From: Gammaproteobacteria bacterium
Lineage (GTDB): Bacteria > Pseudomonadota > Gammaproteobacteria > DAOVJZ01
Direction: 5' to 3'
DNA: 64,000 bases
Assembly (NCBI GenBank): GCA_029882995.1
Contig: JAOUJV010000001.1
Coordinates: 11,668 to 75,667, forward strand
The translations under genes and the position numbers were made by a program. Of this stretch, positions 1-63,544 are shown one piece after another. Under the pieces are notes generated by a model. It was not told the origin of the DNA. It searched no databases and saw nothing but the letters and a program-made list of their open reading frames with translations. Position 1 is the first letter of the stretch; each line of letters begins with the position of its first letter.

Positions 1-162
1 AATCAGTCTTATCCCCCGTTCGTCCTGAGTTTTATCGAAGGACGGACGGGTATCTCATCCAGTTAACACTTGTCAGGAAATAAATACCCGTCATTCCGGC
101 TTATGAACCGGAATCTCGCACAGATTTCTTTGTTGTGCCAATTAAAAACAGGAATCTTATAA

Positions 163-217
163 CTTAAAATCCCTCGGTGGCAACACCGTGCCGGTTCAAA
201 TCCGGCTCTAGGCACCA
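163..217 (+). tRNA. tRNA-Leu(UAA)-like 3' portion (anticodon loop cttaaaa, long variable arm, T-arm, acceptor 3' strand, CCA); the matching 5' half is not in the window
   Basis: Sequence cttaaaatccctcggtggcaacaccgtgccggttcaaatccggctctaggcacca has a TAA anticodon loop, a class II variable stem-loop, a GGTTCAAATCC T-arm and CCA. The 5' acceptor strand (gcctaga) is not found in nt 1-162. Upstream nt 1-160 contain stable hairpins. Confidence 0.5.
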
Positions 218-423
218 TTTAAAACCAATGAGTTACGATTGGTTTTTCAATTCTAAATATCCCCTAATAAGCACTAAAAATTTCTATGTAGGCCTATAGT
301 AGTCAGGTAGAATAAAAAATATCTTGCTTTGTCATATTCTCTATATACACCCTTTATTTATGGTAATCTCAATTAGAATTTAATAAACCACACTCATTCT
401 GTTTTTAAAGCAAGATTTTATAT

Positions 424-3309
424 ATGAACAATAAGCACTTAAATAGAATCACTATTTCCCTAGTGAAATCCAAAAAAGCAAGAAATTTACTCAGAGGGAT
501 GATAGGCGAAACTGAACATTACAAAGTAAAAAATACGCTTAGAAAAATAAAAAATAATTGTTCATCTATCGAATATAAGAAGTCAATAGAGGTCATTAGG
601 GCGGCGGAATTATTTGAACACAACTCTGTTTCCAGAGATTTTAATAAAGTATGCCCAAATACCTTGCCTGATTTAATGAGATTTACTGAAAATGAAATCA
701 TAGACAAAATCAACTCCCAAGAGGATCGAATAAACAAATTGCTTCACTTATATCGAGACTTGTTAGTTTCGATACAGGAAATGAAGATTCGCGATTCATT
801 AAAATTATGCCGATCAATTATTGAGCATAAAGGTGTTTCATGCTGCTTAATTAGAATTCTGTTTTATATTAAAAATCACGCGGACGATTATGATGATTAC
901 GATGATGCGCAAGAAGGTGTGGAAGATATTTTTCGCAAAATAGAGATGAGTAACATTGGTTATTTAGATAACGCAATAAAGGAGTTAAGTAATTCAAGGA
1001 CGGATTATTTTAACATATGTAAAAAAATAAATGGAGATCAAAACAAAACCCCTTTGAATCTTATTGCAAGAGATTTTATTTCTCACGTCACAAGCGATGA
1101 GATCGTTTTCTTGAACACATTAAACGCATACTATACGTTTTCATTGCTAGACTCTTTTCTTTATATTTCTAGTGTAAATAGATTAAAGTTACCCTTAACA
1201 AAGGGTGTGAAAAACATCAAATCAAGCTTGATGGATTCGTTTTATTCGCTAAGCAATATTAAAGTTAATACTAAATTGTATTTGAATGAATATTATGATG
1301 ATTTGGATATCAATTTATTCAGAGAAAGTTTCTTATTGATAGAGCTTGACGAGCTATTTAAATATAAAACCATTCACGGAGCCCTTTATAACACTAGTGA
1401 AAAAAAGGAAGATGTAAGATTACCCGTTGAAAAGCGATTATTGAGTGATTATTTTGAGAGTATTAAGTCGCTATCTGACCTGCGCAATCATGAAAACGGG
1501 GGTAACGGAATCAGCATGGATAAATACGATTCGGAAAAGTGTAGTCACTTCGAAAACTCGAGCGCTTTATTGTACTACATAGAAAAAAATGACGCTAATA
1601 TTTCTGGTGAGGAGAAAATATTTATAGAGTTAATGTCATACACTAGAGATATCGGATATACCTGCCCAAGCCATTACATTAAGAAAATTCAACACAATGC
1701 AGATAGTGATGAGCTTAGGTTAGTTCTGGCGTGTTTGATATCTATAAAAGACAAAAGCCAGATCGCCGATCATGAATTAAGAAGGGTAATGCAAAAATTA
1801 GCCACATCAAAGTTCGATTCAAAGATTAAATATCTTGTTAGGTATCTTTATGATATCTCCCCCTCCGTAACTCACCACTTGATGCAAGTGTGTGATGAAA
1901 CATTTCTGAGTAAGCTTTTTCATTTAACAGAAAAGCCAAACAAGGCAATTGAAGACAGGGCCGACATGCTAGAATGGTATGGGGAACAAATCAAAGATCT
2001 CTCCTACATTGAGAGAGCCAAAAACCTAAGAATTGATGTTCAAATAAATAAAGAAAAAGGAATGATTGACGACTCAAGGATTTATGTTGACCCCCTTAAG
2101 TTTACTCAGTGGATTAATGATAACATCCTCAATGATATTACTCTTCTTCTGGAGGCAAAAGAAAATAAAAACGAATTCACTGCGCAACCTCTTGACTGGA
2201 GAAAAGTACAAAACGGAATATCGAACGATGAGCAAATAGCCTCATTATTATTAAAGTGCTATTCGGAATTTTGTAACAACAAACTTTTTGGAATAGCTTC
2301 ATATCTTGGTCGGCGCATACGCCATGGTACATTTAAAGGGACAGCATTAAAGGAAGTAAAGGACTTTTCTTCAAACAAAAAATATGAGGATATTTTCAAT
2401 GACCGTGATCTTTCGGATTGTTATAATGACTGGTTAAAATGTTACGAGAACATGTTGGAGGAATTAAAGAAATCTTATTTGCATATAAAAAGCAAAAAAA
2501 AGCCACTAGGCCTGATTCATTCCAATATAGGCACCACCTCAAAAAATATAATTGCAAATCATATGCTTCATGATATTTTGAAATCATATAATAAAAACGG
2601 AACCTCCTTGGAGGTGCCGTACCTTGTAACAGAATATTGCTGGAGATTTATTGAGGAAGATTTAGCGAATATCAGAAAGCGTCTTATGGAGTATAAGTCA
2701 AAACATGCTGTGTTTGGATTCAGACTTAATTATTCAAGACTGCTAAAAAGAAAGCATATTAACGAATTCTGCCAAGAATTGAATTCTGTAACAGCTGAAA
2801 AATTTAGAACAATATCTTCTTGGTTTAATAAGCCCTCTATTGCATCACCTTCAGCCAATCTCACCTTATTATTTAAGGCAGTAATATCTGAGATAAAAGG
2901 ATTTTTTACACTATTTGAGCCTACAATCATACACAAGGAAAGTGATTTTAATATTAGTGGCGGCCTTTATTTTGTTATATATGATGCTTTATATATATTG
3001 ATTTATAATGCCGCAAAATATGGCAAAGAGAATAGTGAGCTTGAATTCAAGGTTATACCCCATAGTGAACACCAAGTGATTAATATTTCAATAACGTCTG
3101 AAGCAAAAAATAGTAAAAGTTTAGCTGAATCTAAGCGTTTGATAAATGCGGCCTTAAACGCTGATTTTGAAAACGCCCACATAGAAGAGGGTAAAAGCGG
3201 AATAAAGAAATTAAGAAGAATGGCGAATGATCAATATATTAGCAATGTGAGATATACTTTCCCTTCTAACAAAATAACTGCCTCATTTGACTTTAGCGTG
3301 GAATTTTAG
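424..3309 (+). CDS. Large cytoplasmic sensor protein with C-terminal histidine-kinase-like ATPase domain (N-box-like IYNAAKYG); Detocs DtcA-like
   Basis: 961 aa ORF with no TM segments and AT-rich codon usage. The C-terminus has HATPase_c-like motifs. Its stop lies 2 nt before a receiver-only gene. Confidence 0.6.
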   Translation: MNNKHLNRITISLVKSKKARNLLRGMIGETEHYKVKNTLRKIKNNCSSIEYKKSIEVIRAAELFEHNSVSRDFNKVCPNTLPDLMRFTENEIIDKINSQEDRINKLLHLYRDLLVSIQEMKIRDSLKLCRSIIEHKGVSCCLIRILFYIKNHADDYDDYDDAQEGVEDIFRKIEMSNIGYLDNAIKELSNSRTDYFNICKKINGDQNKTPLNLIARDFISHVTSDEIVFLNTLNAYYTFSLLDSFLYISSVNRLKLPLTKGVKNIKSSLMDSFYSLSNIKVNTKLYLNEYYDDLDINLFRESFLLIELDELFKYKTIHGALYNTSEKKEDVRLPVEKRLLSDYFESIKSLSDLRNHENGGNGISMDKYDSEKCSHFENSSALLYYIEKNDANISGEEKIFIELMSYTRDIGYTCPSHYIKKIQHNADSDELRLVLACLISIKDKSQIADHELRRVMQKLATSKFDSKIKYLVRYLYDISPSVTHHLMQVCDETFLSKLFHLTEKPNKAIEDRADMLEWYGEQIKDLSYIERAKNLRIDVQINKEKGMIDDSRIYVDPLKFTQWINDNILNDITLLLEAKENKNEFTAQPLDWRKVQNGISNDEQIASLLLKCYSEFCNNKLFGIASYLGRRIRHGTFKGTALKEVKDFSSNKKYEDIFNDRDLSDCYNDWLKCYENMLEELKKSYLHIKSKKKPLGLIHSNIGTTSKNIIANHMLHDILKSYNKNGTSLEVPYLVTEYCWRFIEEDLANIRKRLMEYKSKHAVFGFRLNYSRLLKRKHINEFCQELNSVTAEKFRTISSWFNKPSIASPSANLTLLFKAVISEIKGFFTLFEPTIIHKESDFNISGGLYFVIYDALYILIYNAAKYGKENSELEFKVIPHSEHQVINISITSEAKNSKSLAESKRLINAALNADFENAHIEEGKSGIKKLRRMANDQYISNVRYTFPSNKITASFDFSVEF

Positions 3310-3311
3310 AT

Positions 3312-3758
3312 ATGAATATACTTGTTGTTGAAGATGATTCGTTTAAATTTTCAAAAATAGAGACTCTTATTGAAAACACTTTGGGTAAAGTGAAAATAAC
3401 AAGGTTCGATAATATTCATGACACTGTTATTTATTTCGAGTCCAACATCCCGGACAAAATAATTTTGGATATGTCACTACCTAGTCATGCAGCCAAAGTG
3501 GGCGAGGGAAGCCCCTTGTCAATGCCTGCTGGAGGGATTGAAATTATACTTGAGTTAAAAAGTCTAAACATGATAGATATACCGATTCTAATACTAACCC
3601 AATACCCTGAAATTGAAATTGAAAATGAATACTATTCTATAGACGAGTCTGGGATTGAAATTAAAAATATTTACGGCATAAATAATCTGGCCGTTGTTCT
3701 TTATGAGAATGATTCATCTGACTGGAAGGATGAAGCTGTTGATTTTTTGAGGTTATAA
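3312..3758 (+). CDS. Stand-alone receiver (REC) domain protein; Detocs DtcB-like buffer
   Basis: 148 aa. N-terminus ILVVEDD and phospho-acceptor context ILDMSLP are typical of CheY-like receivers. There is no output domain. Confidence 0.6.
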   Translation: MNILVVEDDSFKFSKIETLIENTLGKVKITRFDNIHDTVIYFESNIPDKIILDMSLPSHAAKVGEGSPLSMPAGGIEIILELKSLNMIDIPILILTQYPEIEIENEYYSIDESGIEIKNIYGINNLAVVLYENDSSDWKDEAVDFLRL

Positions 3759-4928
3759 ATGAATATTTTATTAATTGAAGATCAAGAAAATAAAATCACT
3801 CTGGTTGAAGAGTTGATACGTGACAATGTTGAAGGCGATCAGTGTGTAATAATAAAAGCGAAATGTTTGGAGCAAGCGAGAAGAGAGATAATAGGAAAAT
3901 CCTTTGATCTTATTATTTTTGATATCTACCTCCCTTTGACGCCCGAGACTAACTCTGAAGTTGTTGATATATCGTTAGACATTATTAACGAATTTTCACA
4001 GAGCGCCAATAACTACCAAGCTGAAACTATAGCAATAACACAATACGATATTGAAGATATCGACAATATGGCCCTTTTTAATCAAGCAGGAGTTCCTGTT
4101 GTCCATTTTTCAGAGGAAGATGAAAAATGGAAAGACCCCCTTAGATTAAAGATAAAAAAAATCACTGATAGAGTGAAGTATGATTTTTTAATTTTTTGCG
4201 CTTTAAGCAAAGAGCGTTTAGCATTTTCAAATACAAATGCAGAAATGGGAGTGTTGAGAACAATGTATGGCCTTAACTGCCAAGATATAAAAATTGGAGG
4301 CTGCAATGGATTATGTATCACTCCGAACAATATGGGTCTCATTAATATGGCTATTTCAGCCTCAAAAGCAATAGAACACTTTCAACCAAAGATCGTTTCC
4401 ATGAGCGGAATTTGTGCCGGAGTTGAAGGAGAGGCAAATTTATTGGACGTAATCATTGGTGATCTTTGCTGGGAATATCAGACAGGAAAATTCAAAGATA
4501 ATGAATTTAAGCAAGAACCATATCAATCACCGATTGACGGCCGTATTAAAGTAGAGCTTGAGCAACTATGTGAGTCTGCTGAGATGCTGAACAATATTAA
4601 GAGAGGACTTTTTGAAACGGAGTTAAAAGACTCCAAGGTGTTTCTAGGTCCAATATCATCTGGTTCCGCCGTAATAGCCGATGCGAAAAAGATGGCAGAA
4701 ATAGGATTGCAACATCGAAAAATGGCCGGCCTTGAAATGGAAATGTATTCTTTATATGAGGCAGCAAGACAATCATTGTGTAGGCCTTTGTATTTTGGTG
4801 CTAAGACTGTTGTCGATTTAGGTAATACTATAAAAGGGGACACCCTTCATTCTACAGGTTCAACCCTTTCTGCAAGGCTAGTAACACATTATTTAGAATC
4901 TAAGTTGCCTGTTTTAAATATGGATTAA
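3759..4928 (+). CDS. Receiver domain fused to PNP_UDP_1 (purine nucleoside phosphorylase / MTA-nucleosidase-like) domain; Detocs DtcC-like effector
   Basis: 389 aa. N-terminus has ILLIEDQ ... DLIIFDIYLP (REC). The C-terminal half has GICAGVEGEANLLDVIIGD and AGLEMEMYSLYEAA, resembling the Pfs/PNP catalytic (v)EME motif. The start codon abuts the previous stop (taa-atg). Confidence 0.6.
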   Translation: MNILLIEDQENKITLVEELIRDNVEGDQCVIIKAKCLEQARREIIGKSFDLIIFDIYLPLTPETNSEVVDISLDIINEFSQSANNYQAETIAITQYDIEDIDNMALFNQAGVPVVHFSEEDEKWKDPLRLKIKKITDRVKYDFLIFCALSKERLAFSNTNAEMGVLRTMYGLNCQDIKIGGCNGLCITPNNMGLINMAISASKAIEHFQPKIVSMSGICAGVEGEANLLDVIIGDLCWEYQTGKFKDNEFKQEPYQSPIDGRIKVELEQLCESAEMLNNIKRGLFETELKDSKVFLGPISSGSAVIADAKKMAEIGLQHRKMAGLEMEMYSLYEAARQSLCRPLYFGAKTVVDLGNTIKGDTLHSTGSTLSARLVTHYLESKLPVLNMD

Positions 4929-4973
4929 CGAATATTTGAGCCCAGAGTAAACCTCGAATTTCATTAACCAAAC

Positions 4974-5432
4974 TCAACCAAACTTCTTATCCGCACTCAA
5001 TCCTGCCAGTCTTGTATGCAGTTCTTCATACATTGCCATTAACTGTTGTCCTATTTCCTGTTCGGACGTGCCAAGCAGTTTGTTCATTTCATAAAATTCA
5101 ACGGTGTCTTTGCGAAAGGATTTCATGAGCGGTGAGTCCCTGTTTTCGTGGTATAGCTTCATGCGTTCACGCACTTCTTCAAACGGCATCTCTGGTGGGC
5201 CAATATAGATCAATTCGCCGTAGGCCATTGCACGACTGCCGTTGCCTTCGACATTTGGCCCAATACGCTTGCCTTCGGCTCCGGGCATGAATTTTGACTG
5301 ACTGCTGATGGTGATTGTGTCCGTGTGCGGCAATTTCTCACCGCTGGTGTGGTGTGATTTGTCCGGCGGTGTTTGCGGATTGGTGACCGGATCGTAGGCG
5401 GCAGGTGGTTTTATGGCATTTATGCTCATCAA
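4974..5432 (-). CDS. hypothetical protein
   Basis: 152 aa ORF with normal GC content and no recognizable motif. Confidence 0.4.
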   Translation of the reverse strand: MMSINAIKPPAAYDPVTNPQTPPDKSHHTSGEKLPHTDTITISSQSKFMPGAEGKRIGPNVEGNGSRAMAYGELIYIGPPEMPFEEVRERMKLYHENRDSPLMKSFRKDTVEFYEMNKLLGTSEQEIGQQLMAMYEELHTRLAGLSADKKFG

Positions 5433-5487
5433 ATATCCCTCTGTGGCGGGTTATTTGTATTAAGCATTATTTATGCTAATAAGACTA

Positions 5488-5531
5488 AAAGACCTCAGAG
5501 CAATCGTTTTTAATCACTCTGAGGTCTTTGG
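5488..5531 (-). terminator. Rho-independent terminator hairpin (aaagacctcagag ... ctctgaggtcttt)
   Basis: Perfect 13 bp inverted repeat immediately downstream of the minus-strand ORF 5540-5749. Confidence 0.5.
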
Positions 5532-5539
5532 TATGGCGG

Positions 5540-5749
5540 TTAGTTCATGCGGTGCAAGCCCGGCAAACGGATGAGGTAGGTTGTCCAGTAGGGAATGCTT
5601 GCATTGCCGTCCACCGAACGCAGCATCAGACCTTCGCGTTCTCCATGGACTTCCCAAACATTCTCGTTTTCGTCGATCCAGTGTTCATGTATATTCGCTT
5701 CGCCATTGGTAAGTACTTCAGCAATACTGCCTTTAATAGAATGTGACAT
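5540..5749 (-). CDS. small hypothetical protein
   Basis: 69 aa ORF followed by the terminator hairpin. Confidence 0.35.
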   Translation of the reverse strand: MSHSIKGSIAEVLTNGEANIHEHWIDENENVWEVHGEREGLMLRSVDGNASIPYWTTYLIRLPGLHRMN

Positions 5750-6003
5750 GTCGTTTACCTCCCACAGTAAATTTCAATAGCATTCTGATTTGTTCCCACT
5801 CTTCCAGTATAGATCACATCATTTGTCATTCGTGAGCTATGTTGTGCTAATAACGGCGTATTTTATGAGGTTATATTGCCGGAAAAGAAGGCGGGGTTAT
5901 GTTCGGGCTTTCCGGGTTTTTATCTGGGCATTCTGTGTTTCAGGTGCGTATTTTGTCTGTAAAGTGAGCTATAAACCCTGCTTGAAAAGGGTATACTAGC
6001 CAG

Positions 6004-6633
6004 ATGAAAAATACATTCTTATTCAAGCTGTTTCTCGTGTTTGTTTCGTATGCCCTGGTGTTTTCTGCCCATGGAAATTCCGATATCGGGCGGTTGAATC
6101 AGTTGTTGTCCGGCATTACCACGCTGGAATCGACTTTCAAGCAGCTTTTGCTGGATGAGAAAGGGGAAACCATTCAGGAATCGTCCGGCATATTTCAGTT
6201 ACAGCGCCCGGGCAAGTTTCGCTGGGATTACACCAAGCCTTATGAACAGCTCATTATCGCTGATGGCCGCAAGCTGTGGGTTTATGACGCCGATCTGGAA
6301 CAGGTGACAGTCAAGAAACAGGAAACCGCATTGGGCAATACACCGGCGCTGTTGTTAACGAGCAGTCGTGATGTGGAAAAGGATTTTAATGTGCAAGGCA
6401 AGGGCATACAGGAAGGGCTGGAGTGGTTTGAACTAAAACCCAAAGACAAGGAAAGCAGTTTTATTAAAATCAATCTTGCCTTTGGTCAAAACAAGCTCAA
6501 GCAAATGGAGCTGATAGACGGCTTTGGGCAAACCACCCGATTAACGTTTGATGGGATTGTGGTTAATAAAAGTATCGCTTCCGGCCAGTTTGTTTTTAAT
6601 CCACCACGCGGTGTTGACGTTATTAAAGACTAA
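6004..6633 (+). CDS. lolA: Outer-membrane lipoprotein carrier protein LolA
   Basis: 209 aa with a signal peptide and LolA-like sequence. It lies in the conserved lolA-rarA-serS order. Confidence 0.8.
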   Translation: MKNTFLFKLFLVFVSYALVFSAHGNSDIGRLNQLLSGITTLESTFKQLLLDEKGETIQESSGIFQLQRPGKFRWDYTKPYEQLIIADGRKLWVYDADLEQVTVKKQETALGNTPALLLTSSRDVEKDFNVQGKGIQEGLEWFELKPKDKESSFIKINLAFGQNKLKQMELIDGFGQTTRLTFDGIVVNKSIASGQFVFNPPRGVDVIKD

Positions 6634-6638
6634 TCATC

Positions 6639-7967
6639 ATGACAACACAGGCTGATATTTTTGAATCAGAAGTGGTCGCCGAACGACCATTGGCCGATCG
6701 GATGCGTCCGCAAACCGTAGACGAGGTTTTTGGTCAGCAACATTTACTGGCGCAAGACAAACCACTGCGCAAGGCGATTGAGTCCGGTCATTTGCATTCC
6801 ATGATCTTCTGGGGCCCGCCGGGCACCGGCAAGACCACGATGGCGCGTTTGATCGCCCACTCTTCAGATGCTCAGTTCTTAAGTTTGTCTGCTGTTTTTT
6901 CCGGTGTGAAGGATATTCGTGAGGCGATCAGTACCGCCAAAAGTACGCGTGCCGAGTTTGGTAAGGACACGGTGCTGTTTGTCGATGAGGTGCATCGTTT
7001 TAACAAATCACAGCAAGACGGGTTTTTGCCCTACATAGAAGACGGCACCATTATTTTTATTGGTGCGACCACCGAGAACCCGTCGTTTGAATTAAATAAT
7101 GCCTTGTTATCCCGTGCGCGGGTTTATGTCTTGCGCAGTCTCAGTGACGAGGATATGCAGCACGTCATTAAAACGGCATTGGTTTCAGAAAAAGGGTTAG
7201 CAGAACGCGGCCTGATGATTGAAGAGGCGGCTTGTACATTATTGGCGCAGGCGGCGGATGGCGATGCGAGACGGGCGTTAAACCTGCTCGAAATCGCGGC
7301 GGATTTATCTGAACAAAGCCAGATCACCGAATCGGCGATTAAGGAAGTGGTGGCCGGTGGTGTCTTGCGCCGTTTCGATAAAGGCGGCGAGGCCTTTTAT
7401 GATCAGATATCGGCATTGCATAAATCGGTACGTGGCTCGGATCCGGATGCGGCGTTGTATTGGTTATGCCGGATGATCGATGGCGGGTGTGACCCCTTGT
7501 ATATTGCCCGACGGGTAGTACGCATGGCTTCAGAGGATATTGGTAATGCCGACCCGCGCGGCCTGCAACTCGCGCTTGATGCATGGGAAGTACAGGAACG
7601 GCTCGGCAGTCCGGAAGGGGAGCTGGCGATTGCACAGGCGGTGGTTTATCTGGCCAGTGCACCCAAGAGTAATGCGGTATACAAGGCCTTTAATCAGGCC
7701 ATGGCGGCAGCAAAGTCATCCGGCTCGCTGGAAGTGCCTCTGCATCTTCGCAATGCCCCGACCCGGCTCATGAAAGAGCTCGATTATGGCAAGGAATACC
7801 GTTATGCCCATGATGAACCCGAGGGATATGCCGCCGGTGAAAATTATTTTCCAGAAGAGATGAAACAGCCGCATAATTACTATCAGCCTGTTGATAGAGG
7901 GCTGGAGCAAAGGATCGCAGCCCGACTTCAATATCTGCGTGAGCTGGACAAAAAACAGGGTCGCTGA
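6639..7967 (+). CDS. rarA: Replication-associated recombination protein A (AAA+ ATPase RarA/MgsA)
   Basis: Walker A FWGPPGTGKTT and Walker B VLFVDEVHRFNK. 442 aa. Confidence 0.9.
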   Translation: MTTQADIFESEVVAERPLADRMRPQTVDEVFGQQHLLAQDKPLRKAIESGHLHSMIFWGPPGTGKTTMARLIAHSSDAQFLSLSAVFSGVKDIREAISTAKSTRAEFGKDTVLFVDEVHRFNKSQQDGFLPYIEDGTIIFIGATTENPSFELNNALLSRARVYVLRSLSDEDMQHVIKTALVSEKGLAERGLMIEEAACTLLAQAADGDARRALNLLEIAADLSEQSQITESAIKEVVAGGVLRRFDKGGEAFYDQISALHKSVRGSDPDAALYWLCRMIDGGCDPLYIARRVVRMASEDIGNADPRGLQLALDAWEVQERLGSPEGELAIAQAVVYLASAPKSNAVYKAFNQAMAAAKSSGSLEVPLHLRNAPTRLMKELDYGKEYRYAHDEPEGYAAGENYFPEEMKQPHNYYQPVDRGLEQRIAARLQYLRELDKKQGR

Positions 7968-8002
7968 TAAAATTTAACCCATTGTATTTTAAGGTAAAAT
8001 AA

Positions 8003-62138: not shown

Positions 62139-62214
62139 GCGGGAATAGCTCAGCTGGTAGAGCACAACCTTGCCAAGGTTGGGGTCGCGAGTTCGAATCT
62201 CGTTTCCCGCTCCA
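62139..62214 (+). tRNA. glyW: tRNA-Gly(GCC)
   Basis: gcgggaatagctcagctggtagagcacaaccttgccaaggttggggtcgcgagttcgaatctcgtttcccgctcca. Near-identical to E. coli tRNA-Gly with anticodon GCC. Confidence 0.95.
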
Positions 62215-62256
62215 GATTTAAGTGGGGACAGATATTTCTGTCCCCATTCTGTTTAT

Positions 62257-62330
62257 GGCTGAGTGGCAGAATGGCTATGCAGCGGATTGCAAATCCGTGG
62301 ACCTCGGTTCGACTCCGGGCTCAGCCTCCA
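62257..62330 (+). tRNA. cysT: tRNA-Cys(GCA)
   Basis: Anticodon loop ggattgcaaatcc, T-loop GGTTCGACTCC, CCA end. 74 nt. Confidence 0.9.
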
Positions 62331-62549
62331 CTTTTGCCCTGACTCATCGGAGATGAGTAGGGTTGCCTTGACCCGGAAGGGTAAGGTACTCATAACGAAC
62401 CTCGAAGAGGTTCTATGAGCTGTCGCTCAATTACTCCCCCATACCAACCCTTCCAGCAAACATTGTCTACTGCATTCAATCAAATGTTAATGTAAACTAC
62501 GCCCGTCATCTGCAGCCCGGGTGGCGAAATTGGTAGACGCAAGGGACTT

Positions 62550-63242
62550 AAACATTTTGAGCACCCGTTTCGGAAACGATCGGTGTGAATGGAGTCAAAT
62601 TCGGGGAAACCTCAGCATTTATGATAGTGGCAATCCCGAGCTAAGTTCTGGATTTATTTTTACCCCTGTAAGTAGGGGTGAGGGCGTGGCAATTAGGACA
62701 TAGAAGACGAAGATTTTTTAAATCGTTATCTTTATTGTTGCCATTGATGTGGTCAAGCTCAAGCGGAATTGGCTTATTAAGCCATGAAGTACCATAACAA
62801 CATGCACATTTATGCTTAAATATCCCTTCTTTCAAGAGACGGTTCTTAAGCTTGAATGATTGAATGGCTAGTTCGTTATTAAGGTATTTTTCCAAAGGAA
62901 CTTTGGCAGGGAGATTCTTGCCTTTATTCCATGCTTGCCCCCTGAAATGGGATATATCTAATTCAAAGTGATTTATCGCTTTTTTGAGGATACTGTAATT
63001 GCCTCCGTAAGGAGATACATTGAGCTTTAATAATACTTGCCTAAGGGATGTTGAATTTTGTACAGCATTCTGAAGGGCTGTTTCAGTATATTTATAAAGC
63101 TTCATATGGATACTCCTTTATCCAGAAAAAGTGTAGAGACTTGACGGCTCCTGCCTAAGTTATGTGATATAGCATAATACGGTAAAGAGAAAGTCCAGAC
63201 CACAAACGTAGGAATACGGCAGTGAAAACTGTAGCGGGTAAG
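62550..63242 (+). mobile_element. Putative group I intron in tRNA-Leu(UAA) carrying an antisense HNH endonuclease ORF
   Basis: Insertion after U34 as in cyanobacterial/plastid trnL and Azoarcus tRNA introns. Candidate internal guide GAGTC (62592-62596) pairs with the 5' exon end GACUU with a terminal U-G wobble. The intron ends in G (63242). The structured GC-rich ends flank an AT-rich ORF. Confidence 0.5.
62641..63105 (-). CDS. HNH homing-endonuclease-like protein
   Basis: 154 aa with ELDHINGNNKDNDLKNLRLLCPNCH (HNH motif with a Cys zinc knuckle). Located inside the tRNA-Leu intervening sequence, antisense to the tRNA. Confidence 0.7.
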   Translation of the reverse strand: MKLYKYTETALQNAVQNSTSLRQVLLKLNVSPYGGNYSILKKAINHFELDISHFRGQAWNKGKNLPAKVPLEKYLNNELAIQSFKLKNRLLKEGIFKHKCACCYGTSWLNKPIPLELDHINGNNKDNDLKNLRLLCPNCHALTPTYRGKNKSRT

Positions 63243-63544
63243 AAAATCCCTCGGATGAATAATCCGTGCCGGTTCGACTCCGGCCCCGGGCACCATCTCT
63301 TCTTAAAACTCCACGATTAAGCCATTCCTGCTACAGTATTTTTTCGAATGGTAATTTGGCTTAAAACGTGTGAAACATGCAAATTTAGGCTTGGTCATGG
63401 CCATGTTATAACTACCACACAAAATACCATGCAATATAACGGGTTTACCCAACCAAAATAGTAGGTTATTATATACCCATATATTATTGCTGACAGTGGG
63501 TCAGCATATGATTTTGGTATATGAGATAACAAGGGGACAAGATT

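Follow-up and report, generated by a model that had tools for sequence, protein, structure and literature searches.

A tRNA-Leu(UAA) 3' half beside a Detocs-type operon 3' of ftsK: a probable orphan attachment-site relic

A stretch of 64,000 nucleotides (nt) from Gammaproteobacteria bacterium (GenBank assembly GCA_029882995.1, contig JAOUJV010000001.1, positions 11,668 to 75,667 of the forward strand; referred to as the window) was analysed with respect to a fragment of a transfer RNA (tRNA) gene at its left end. The fragment occupies nt 163-217, is the 3' half of a leuZ-type tRNA-Leu(UAA), and lies a short distance 3' of ftsK in an insert which also carries a Detocs-type operon. It is probably an orphan, decayed attachment site (att) of an integrative element. 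The fragment and its immediate flanks, with their guanine-plus-cytosine (GC) contents, are as follows.

163-217, plus strand: tRNA-Leu(UAA) 3' half of leuZ type, from C32 of the anticodon loop through the variable arm, the T arm and the acceptor 3' strand (TCTAGGC) to the discriminator A and CCA
1-162, plus strand: non-coding left flank of the fragment, part of the insert, GC 42%, with two hairpins and a 16-nt direct repeat
218-250, plus strand: tRNA trailer and terminator-like hairpin (AAAACCAAT / ATTGGTTTT at 221-229 / 238-246), followed by a run of T's
218-423: AT-rich leader, GC 27%

The letters of 163-217 give, in order, the whole 7-nt anticodon loop with UAA (CTTAAAA), the 3' strand of the anticodon stem (TCCCT), a type-II variable arm (CGGTG/GCAA/CACCG), a single T, the T arm (GCCGG/TTCAAAT/CCGGC), the acceptor strand (TCTAGGC), the discriminator A and an encoded CCA. 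The variable arm forms a perfect 5-bp stem, and the T arm is likewise perfect. With the Rfam tRNA model a 5'-truncated match was obtained (17.1 bits, model positions 25-71, below the 29-bit cut-off), and no complete tRNA was called at 1-217 by ARAGORN or by Rfam at the gathering threshold. When the fragment was fused to an unrelated tRNA-Leu(UAA) 5' half with a complementary acceptor strand, a canonical tRNA-Leu(taa) cloverleaf was called by ARAGORN. The 17-mer of the T arm occurs a single time in the window, apart from the resident leuZ gene at 62.5 kb with 2 mismatches, at a chance expectation of 0.01. The blastn matches of window 1-423 to the phage and plasmid collections all begin at query 162-164, and each match that was inspected or annotated is a tRNA-Leu gene or a fragment of one. 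A chance origin of the tRNA-like sequence at 163-217 is excluded. An earlier interpretation made from the letters of this DNA (the sequence-only reading) had described here a tRNA 3' portion from the loop to CCA with its own variable arm and acceptor strand, and this description is borne out by the sequence, the Rfam match and the ARAGORN fusion.

The fragment is identical at 45/55 positions to the 3' exon of the window's own leuZ gene and at 49/55 to leuZ of Halomonas. The resident gene is listed as context and is not part of the relic.

62515-63296, plus strand: resident leuZ, tRNA-Leu(UAA), with exons 62515-62549 and 63243-63296

Compared with this gene, the changes in the variable arm of the fragment are compensatory, so that the stem stays paired, and the acceptor strand is distinct at three positions. 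The fragment is therefore taken to come from a separate functional gene and not from a decayed copy of the resident leuZ.

No 5' half accompanies the fragment. GCCTAGA, the partner of TCTAGGC, has zero occurrences in the window, and the similarity of 1-162 to tRNA-Leu 5' halves gave local-alignment scores of 5-6 against shuffle means of 6.5-6.8, with 82-99% of the shuffles reaching the score; the absence of a matching 5' half from 1-162, which had been stated before, thus extends to the whole 64 kb as far as the motif is concerned. The region further upstream was read on contig L001 (ENA ERZ27296342), which is identical to the window and reaches 9.5 kb further left. The ftsK stop in L001 is 11 nt before window position 1, which leaves no room for a 5' exon, and the genes upstream of ftsK are ordinary core genes (alanine dehydrogenase, a thioredoxin-reductase-like gene, aat/ate, infA and clpA). 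No tRNA was found in these 9.5 kb. Models of group I and group II introns, RF00028 included, gave no match to nt 1-400 at E ≤ 10. C32, U33 and U34 of the fragment are present and contiguous with A35, and the loop CTTAAAA is unbroken at the place where the resident leuZ carries an intron; the source gene of the fragment was therefore intron-less. The sequence-only reading had remarked that the nucleotide preceding A35 is T and not G. The T is present, and as U34 it merely belongs to an anticodon loop without interruption. Two origins had been offered in that reading, namely an att scar and the 3' exon of an interrupted tRNA-Leu with its 5' exon upstream. The second is refuted by L001, in which ftsK ends just before the window and no tRNA lies within 9.5 kb, by the lack of any intron match in the covariance-model search of nt 1-400, and by the unbroken loop.

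The stable hairpins reported earlier in 1-162 are real. One has 12-bp arms at 15-26/39-50 and the second is located at about 93-114, and RNA folding of 1-225 gave z = -3.9 against shuffles. To the left of the fragment a 16-nt direct repeat is found at 101-116 / 142-157 (TTATGAACCGGAATCT / TTAAAAACAGGAATCT), and an inverted TTAAAAACAG lies to its right at 399-408. The 16-nt repeats together with the inverted TTAAAAACAG could be arm-type sites of an integrase, statistically not a compelling case, and nt 1-162 may be what is left of an att P arm. At 150-174, the letters AGGAA, T, CTTATAA, CTTAAAA and TCCCT follow one another, so that the 7-nt anticodon loop is preceded by a tandem near-duplicate; a 4/5 match to the 5' strand of the anticodon stem, shifted by 8 nt, is also found here. 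The near-duplicate could be due to chance or could be the trace of an aberrant recombination.

On the right of the fragment, the leuZ character continues beyond CCA. The first 20 nt of the trailer match the leuZ trailer of Aeromonas and that of the attP of Aeromonas phage LPM4 at 17-18/20 positions (TTAAAATCAAAGAGTTAC in LPM4 and TTTAAAACCAATGAGTTAC in the window, counted from the first nt past CCA). The Detocs operon begins directly after the terminator-like hairpin of the fragment. The remaining features of the insert and its right edge are as follows.

424-4928, plus strand: Detocs-type operon dtcABC, GC 34%, with dtcA at 424-3309, dtcB at 3312-3758 and dtcC at 3759-4928
4974-5432, minus strand: open reading frame (ORF) of 151 amino acids, GC 49% (host-like), assigned to none of the Pfam or PADLOC families and missing from related loci
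5488-5529, bidirectional: hairpin terminator at the right edge of the insert, located directly after the ftsK stop in the relative L014 and displaced here by 5.5 kb

The GC content is 27-34% across 218-4928, compared with about 45% for the genome. The operon proteins have 961, 148 and 389 amino acids, respectively, and match PDC-M60A/B/C of PADLOC; the Pfam domains Y4jQ, Response_reg and PNP_UDP_1 were found on them, DtcC being a receiver joined to PNP_UDP_1 (a PNP-family effector). The three-gene architecture of Detocs, as described in bioRxiv 10.1101/2023.01.24.525353, is present with a sensor kinase-like DtcA, a stand-alone receiver DtcB, and DtcC as a receiver with a PNP-family nucleosidase, and judging from this architecture PDC-M60 of PADLOC would correspond to Detocs. 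Among the homologues of DtcA, that of Vibrio alginolyticus is 40% identical and the closest is only 58% identical.

The extent of the insert was estimated by comparison with relatives, which were identified through their LolA and FtsK homologues (67-89% protein identity). Nucleotide homology to L070, L071 and L072 ends 4 nt past the ftsK stop. Homology to L014 resumes at window 5488 with the terminator hairpin and then a 69-amino-acid ORF (81% amino acid identity), and a short CTAATA motif aligns to L014 already at about 5472. The lineage-specific insert has a length of about 5.5 kb (window about -7 to 5470), lies between ftsK and its native terminator, and contains the tRNA fragment, the low-GC dtcABC operon and one ORF of unknown family. 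The comparison with related genomes that had been proposed in the sequence-only reading was informative, as the insert with its fragment is missing from L014, L070, L071 and L072. A 28-nt inverted repeat with 75% complementarity (141-168/4892-4919) encloses the tRNA half and the whole Detocs operon; it is probably due to chance, its right arm being inside the last codons of dtcC.

What follows ftsK differs from relative to relative. L014 (FtsK 83%) has, in order, ftsK, the hairpin terminator, the 69-amino-acid ORF on the minus strand, DarP, a small ORF and lolA (3964-5605). In L070 (FtsK 89%) a Lamassu-like set is found 3' of ftsK, with an LmuB ATPase and proteins with CTD9 and MC5 domains (2563-4836), in L071 (FtsK 87%) a different ORF is found (3003-3529), and in L072 (FtsK 73%) the spacer between ftsK and lolA has only 15 nt (5575-5588). 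No tRNA or T-arm motif was found 3' of ftsK or 5' of lolA in the readable relatives L010-L014 and L070-L072. The spot directly 3' of ftsK is thus a variable, defence-prone hotspot of the clade, occupied by Detocs in this window.

In the organism itself, the DtcA protein of 424-3309 was found on nine metagenome or metagenome-assembled genome contigs. Over 1-6003, one single-nucleotide polymorphism is the sole difference among the contigs that carry dtcA or lolA, and no empty site or alternative junction was seen among these clonal contigs. Some independent short-read assemblies break near the two edges of the insert: L006 starts at window 170, inside the tRNA half, and L008 and L009 start at window 5540, at the 3' end of the conserved 69-amino-acid ORF. 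These breaks may hint at strain-level variation or repeats.

Elements which integrate into tRNA genes by a tyrosine integrase hold in their attP a copy of the 3' part of the tRNA; integration restores the gene and displaces the original 3' fragment. The tRNA-Leu homology of the window fragment starts at A31/C32 and runs to CCA, and the anticodon loop is a known sublocation of the crossover. The fragment is best read, with a probability of roughly two in three, as an orphan, decayed att relic of a tyrosine-integrase element which targeted the anticodon loop of tRNA-Leu(UAA), and 163-217 presumably represents an att core plus the tRNA-identity block. An element of this type would carry or displace precisely the tRNA 3' half, with the 7-nt anticodon loop as the strand-exchange segment, and strand exchange in this loop would account for the abrupt beginning of tRNA homology at position 32. 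The relic would comprise the tRNA-identity block and, behind it, a leuZ trailer and terminator of about 30 nt, derived from a foreign or element-borne leuZ-type gene rather than from the resident leuZ. The integrase and the partner att site would since have been lost, along with any 5' half of the tRNA. The breakpoint would then have been made by an integrase, and the fragment and Detocs would have arrived together. Today the relic is probably, if not almost certainly, inert. An att scar is the origin offered in the sequence-only reading which is best supported, by the breakpoint, the lineage-specific insert and the low-GC cargo; the integrase, the partner repeat and the cognate full-length tRNA that would be expected with it were not found.

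Two geometries are possible. In the first (attP/attL type), the half and its trailer would be DNA of the element and Detocs its adjacent cargo, which fits the break in composition after the trailer. In the second (attR type), 1-162 would be the P arm of a lost element to the left, and the half would be a displaced host copy that was co-transferred from a donor leuZ locus; this geometry resembles phage LPM4 and the Ruegeria locus described below, where an integrase precedes the core. The 3' end of ftsK could have been reached by secondary-site integration, by illegitimate recombination, or by exchange at a variable hotspot.

Several findings weigh against an att relic and are gathered here. None of the relatives has a tRNA locus at the site, which makes canonical integration at this place impossible. 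The fragment does not stand at a junction and is located 170 nt inside the insert. The Pfam calls for the 9.5 kb upstream and for the genes called over 12 kb downstream include no integrase, and a tblastn search of the window plus L001 with three tyrosine integrases gave nothing significant. Neither the core nor the fragment was found a second time in the window; a repeat search of 1-8000 and blastn of 1-423 against the window for a partner repeat or target duplication returned only the 3' exon of the resident leuZ and short chance matches. A cognate full-length tRNA gene (tDNA) upstream of the fragment and in the same orientation was not encountered within the window and the 9.5 kb upstream. 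Another tRNA-Leu(UAA) occurs only 62 kb downstream; it has a different sequence and is on the wrong side for a displaced 3' fragment under the configuration rule of Islander. The nine contigs are clonal and so provide no population evidence for excision or an empty site. Searches for the exact or a degenerate 3' half gave 0 matches in 185,579 GTDB species representatives and 0 in IMG/VR, so that no donor was identified. Within tens of kb, then, there is neither a 5' half nor a direct repeat, an absence which the sequence-only reading had itself named as counting against its proposals. Since the integrase, the partner repeat and the cognate tRNA are all missing, the outcome is an orphan relic and not an island that can be delimited.

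One match to the 3' half was obtained in the JGI metagenomes, a tRNA-Leu with the same T stem, acceptor strand and CCA, in which the T loop and the variable arm differ. This match, the tRNA-Leu(UAA) of contig L069 (1-4553; JGI Ga0129333_10037832), was the sole database sequence found with a TCTAGGC acceptor strand. Eight tRNA genes (Val, Gly, Thr, Leu-UAG, Leu-UAA, Gly, Ser and Arg) stand among small ORFs in these 4.5 kb, which looks like a phage tRNA cluster.

The alternative that survives best is that the fragment is left over from a vertically inherited, resident tRNA-Leu(UAA) gene between ftsK and lolA, the 5' half of which was removed by a deletion ending at the anticodon loop, perhaps during an exchange of cargo. 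The high plasticity of the region 3' of ftsK in the clade would allow it, the GC content and the quality of the fragment are those of a normal tRNA, and a leuZ-like trailer is kept that is partly like the window's own leuZ trailer (TTAAAAC...ACGATT). However, the relatives named above lack both a tRNA or T-arm motif and the flank 1-162 at this place, one of them having the 15-nt spacer, and the acceptor stem and the variable arm differ from those of the resident leuZ with compensatory changes. A random deletion ending precisely at 31/32, the crossover site of integrases, would moreover be a coincidence. This origin is regarded as unlikely.

Considerably less probable is a present function of the fragment as a tRNA-like element, be it a signal for processing, a means of stabilising the 3' end of ftsK or the 5' end of dtcA, a still usable attB landing pad, or a decoy or sensor for Detocs. 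Such a function would agree with the structural perfection of the fragment, which is without decay, and with its position directly upstream of a defence operon, and a cloverleaf-like fold can be closed by the pairing of GUGCC (135-139) and GGCAC (211-215). This closure is not significant, a 5-bp helix being expected by chance, and the full-length tRNA-Sec-like fit (15.3 bits, E = 2.8) belongs to the noise matches obtained from Rfam at E ≤ 10 on 1-400, which also included Plastid-ycf2, LDH1 and IS605-orfB and were all far under the cut-offs. A terminator-like hairpin separates the fragment from dtcA. The fragment was also considered as a conserved component of Detocs and rejected, as it is absent from all 58 loci with DtcA homologues (54 from GTDB and 4 from metagenomes); a tRNA-Leu(UAA) was seen close to a DtcA homologue just once, in Gluconobacter, as an intact gene 2 kb upstream.

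The resident leuZ belongs to a glyW-cysT-leuZ cluster (window 62139-63296) and is interrupted by a 693-nt group I intron (62550-63242) between U34 and A35, the last base of which is G. An HNH endonuclease ORF of 154 amino acids lies on the reverse strand within the intron (62641-63105). RF00028 scored 32.3 bits on this intron, below gathering, and the low score is probably due to the inserted HNH ORF. By eye, the 3' core of the intron resembles those of cyanobacterial tRNA-Leu introns, and such an intron-bearing tRNA-Leu is unusual for a gammaproteobacterial sulfur oxidiser. In an extension of the att-relic reading, which is speculative and a long shot, the attB of the resident leuZ, destroyed at the DNA level by the intron within the 7-nt crossover segment, would have been of no use to a leuZ-specific element, which would have landed at a secondary site 3' of ftsK; at neither junction of the insert was a pseudo-attB recognised that resembles the core. 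If this were true, introns in the anticodon loop would shield tRNA genes from integrating elements, and elements with defence genes would be diverted to other hotspots. The wider, speculative question is whether integrases acting on the anticodon loop are blocked by the group I intron of the resident leuZ.

The 3' exon of a second interrupted or split tRNA-Leu(UAA), joined by a group I/II intron or by trans-splicing, is the least credible origin and barely merits consideration, its cis version being refuted, for although the intron in the resident leuZ shows that such genes occur in this genome and 1-225 folds more stably than its shuffles, ftsK ends 11 nt before the window with no tRNA and no GCCTAGA motif upstream, no intron family was recognised, C32-U33-U34 runs directly into A35, and no possible splice junction is preceded by the conserved intron-terminal G.

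In an annotation, the names tRNA gene, pseudo-intron and second interrupted tRNA-Leu would all be wrong for the fragment. With it, a mark is set on the left side of a 5.5-kb block, acquired horizontally, that brought Detocs to the variable spot 3' of ftsK, the same spot at which a sister lineage carries the Lamassu-like system. It would be a further case in which defence cargo travels with integrative elements that target tRNA genes, and in which an att relic outlasts its integrase.

Attachment sites in the anticodon loop are catalogued by Islander as class A tDNA sites (PMC4383910, citing Williams 2002). A 3' tDNA fragment was recorded there in 3760/3919 islands, with an anticodon-centred attP in 2083 (PMC4383910). 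Like these sites, the window fragment is a tRNA 3' end from the anticodon loop through CCA and adjoins foreign low-GC cargo in the same strand sense. Unlike them, the window locus is without an integrase, an upstream cognate full-length tDNA and a second repeat, and its fragment is found directly 3' of ftsK and not at a tRNA; the integrase and configuration filters of Islander would reject it.

The closest parallel of the core itself is found in Aeromonas phage vB_AsaM_LPM4 (Peduoviridae, OL348188.1). When the ends of the record are joined, the integrase is followed by 113 nt, by TTTAAAATCCCT on to CCA, and then by the trailer and the terminator, and over 104 nt this attP block shares 97% identity with the unoccupied glyW-cysT-leuZ locus (attB) of A. 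caviae. The window fragment comes from the same tRNA species (Leu-UAA), its breakpoint is equal within 1 nt, and its identity block likewise extends beyond CCA into the trailer and the terminator, whereas its tRNA part is only about 75% identical overall. In LPM4 the integrase is 113 nt upstream of the core with arm-type repeats on both sides, and tail genes lie downstream; in the window ftsK is upstream, the repeats are only candidates, and Detocs lies downstream.

Detocs-like cargo next to a tRNA half is found in Ruegeria atlantica HKCCA5752 (locus L022, 822-16070; NZ_WQFE01000002.1). Here, tRNA-Lys(UUU) 3' halves from C32 form two 50-nt direct repeats at a distance of 13.8 kb, each preceded by an integrase (Arm-DNA-bind_3 + Phage_integrase), and a Detocs-like operon sits between them (tandem integrative islands); no intact tRNA was found in the 22.8-kb locus. 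As in this locus, a three-gene system of Detocs type is associated in the window with a tRNA 3' half starting at C32. The two differ in the tRNA (Lys(UUU) with integrases and both repeats intact in Ruegeria, Leu(UAA) in the window), and their DtcA proteins are only 28% identical.

The isolated state of the fragment has its counterpart in Aeromonas media plasmid pE31A (IncU; NZ_CP067418.1, L083 about 3990-4100), where an orphan tRNA-Leu(UAA) 3' half with leuZ trailer and terminator lies between IS256 and ISKpn10 (IS3) transposases and no tRNA gene was called. In both cases a leuZ 3' half with its trailer stands isolated, off any tRNA locus; the copy in pE31A is nearly identical to the att block of LPM4, and the copy in the window is without a close relative. 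The orphan in pE31A indicates that relics of the leuZ 3' half persist away from tRNA loci. The window fragment is thus a further instance of a well-known type of feature, and no new mechanism is involved.

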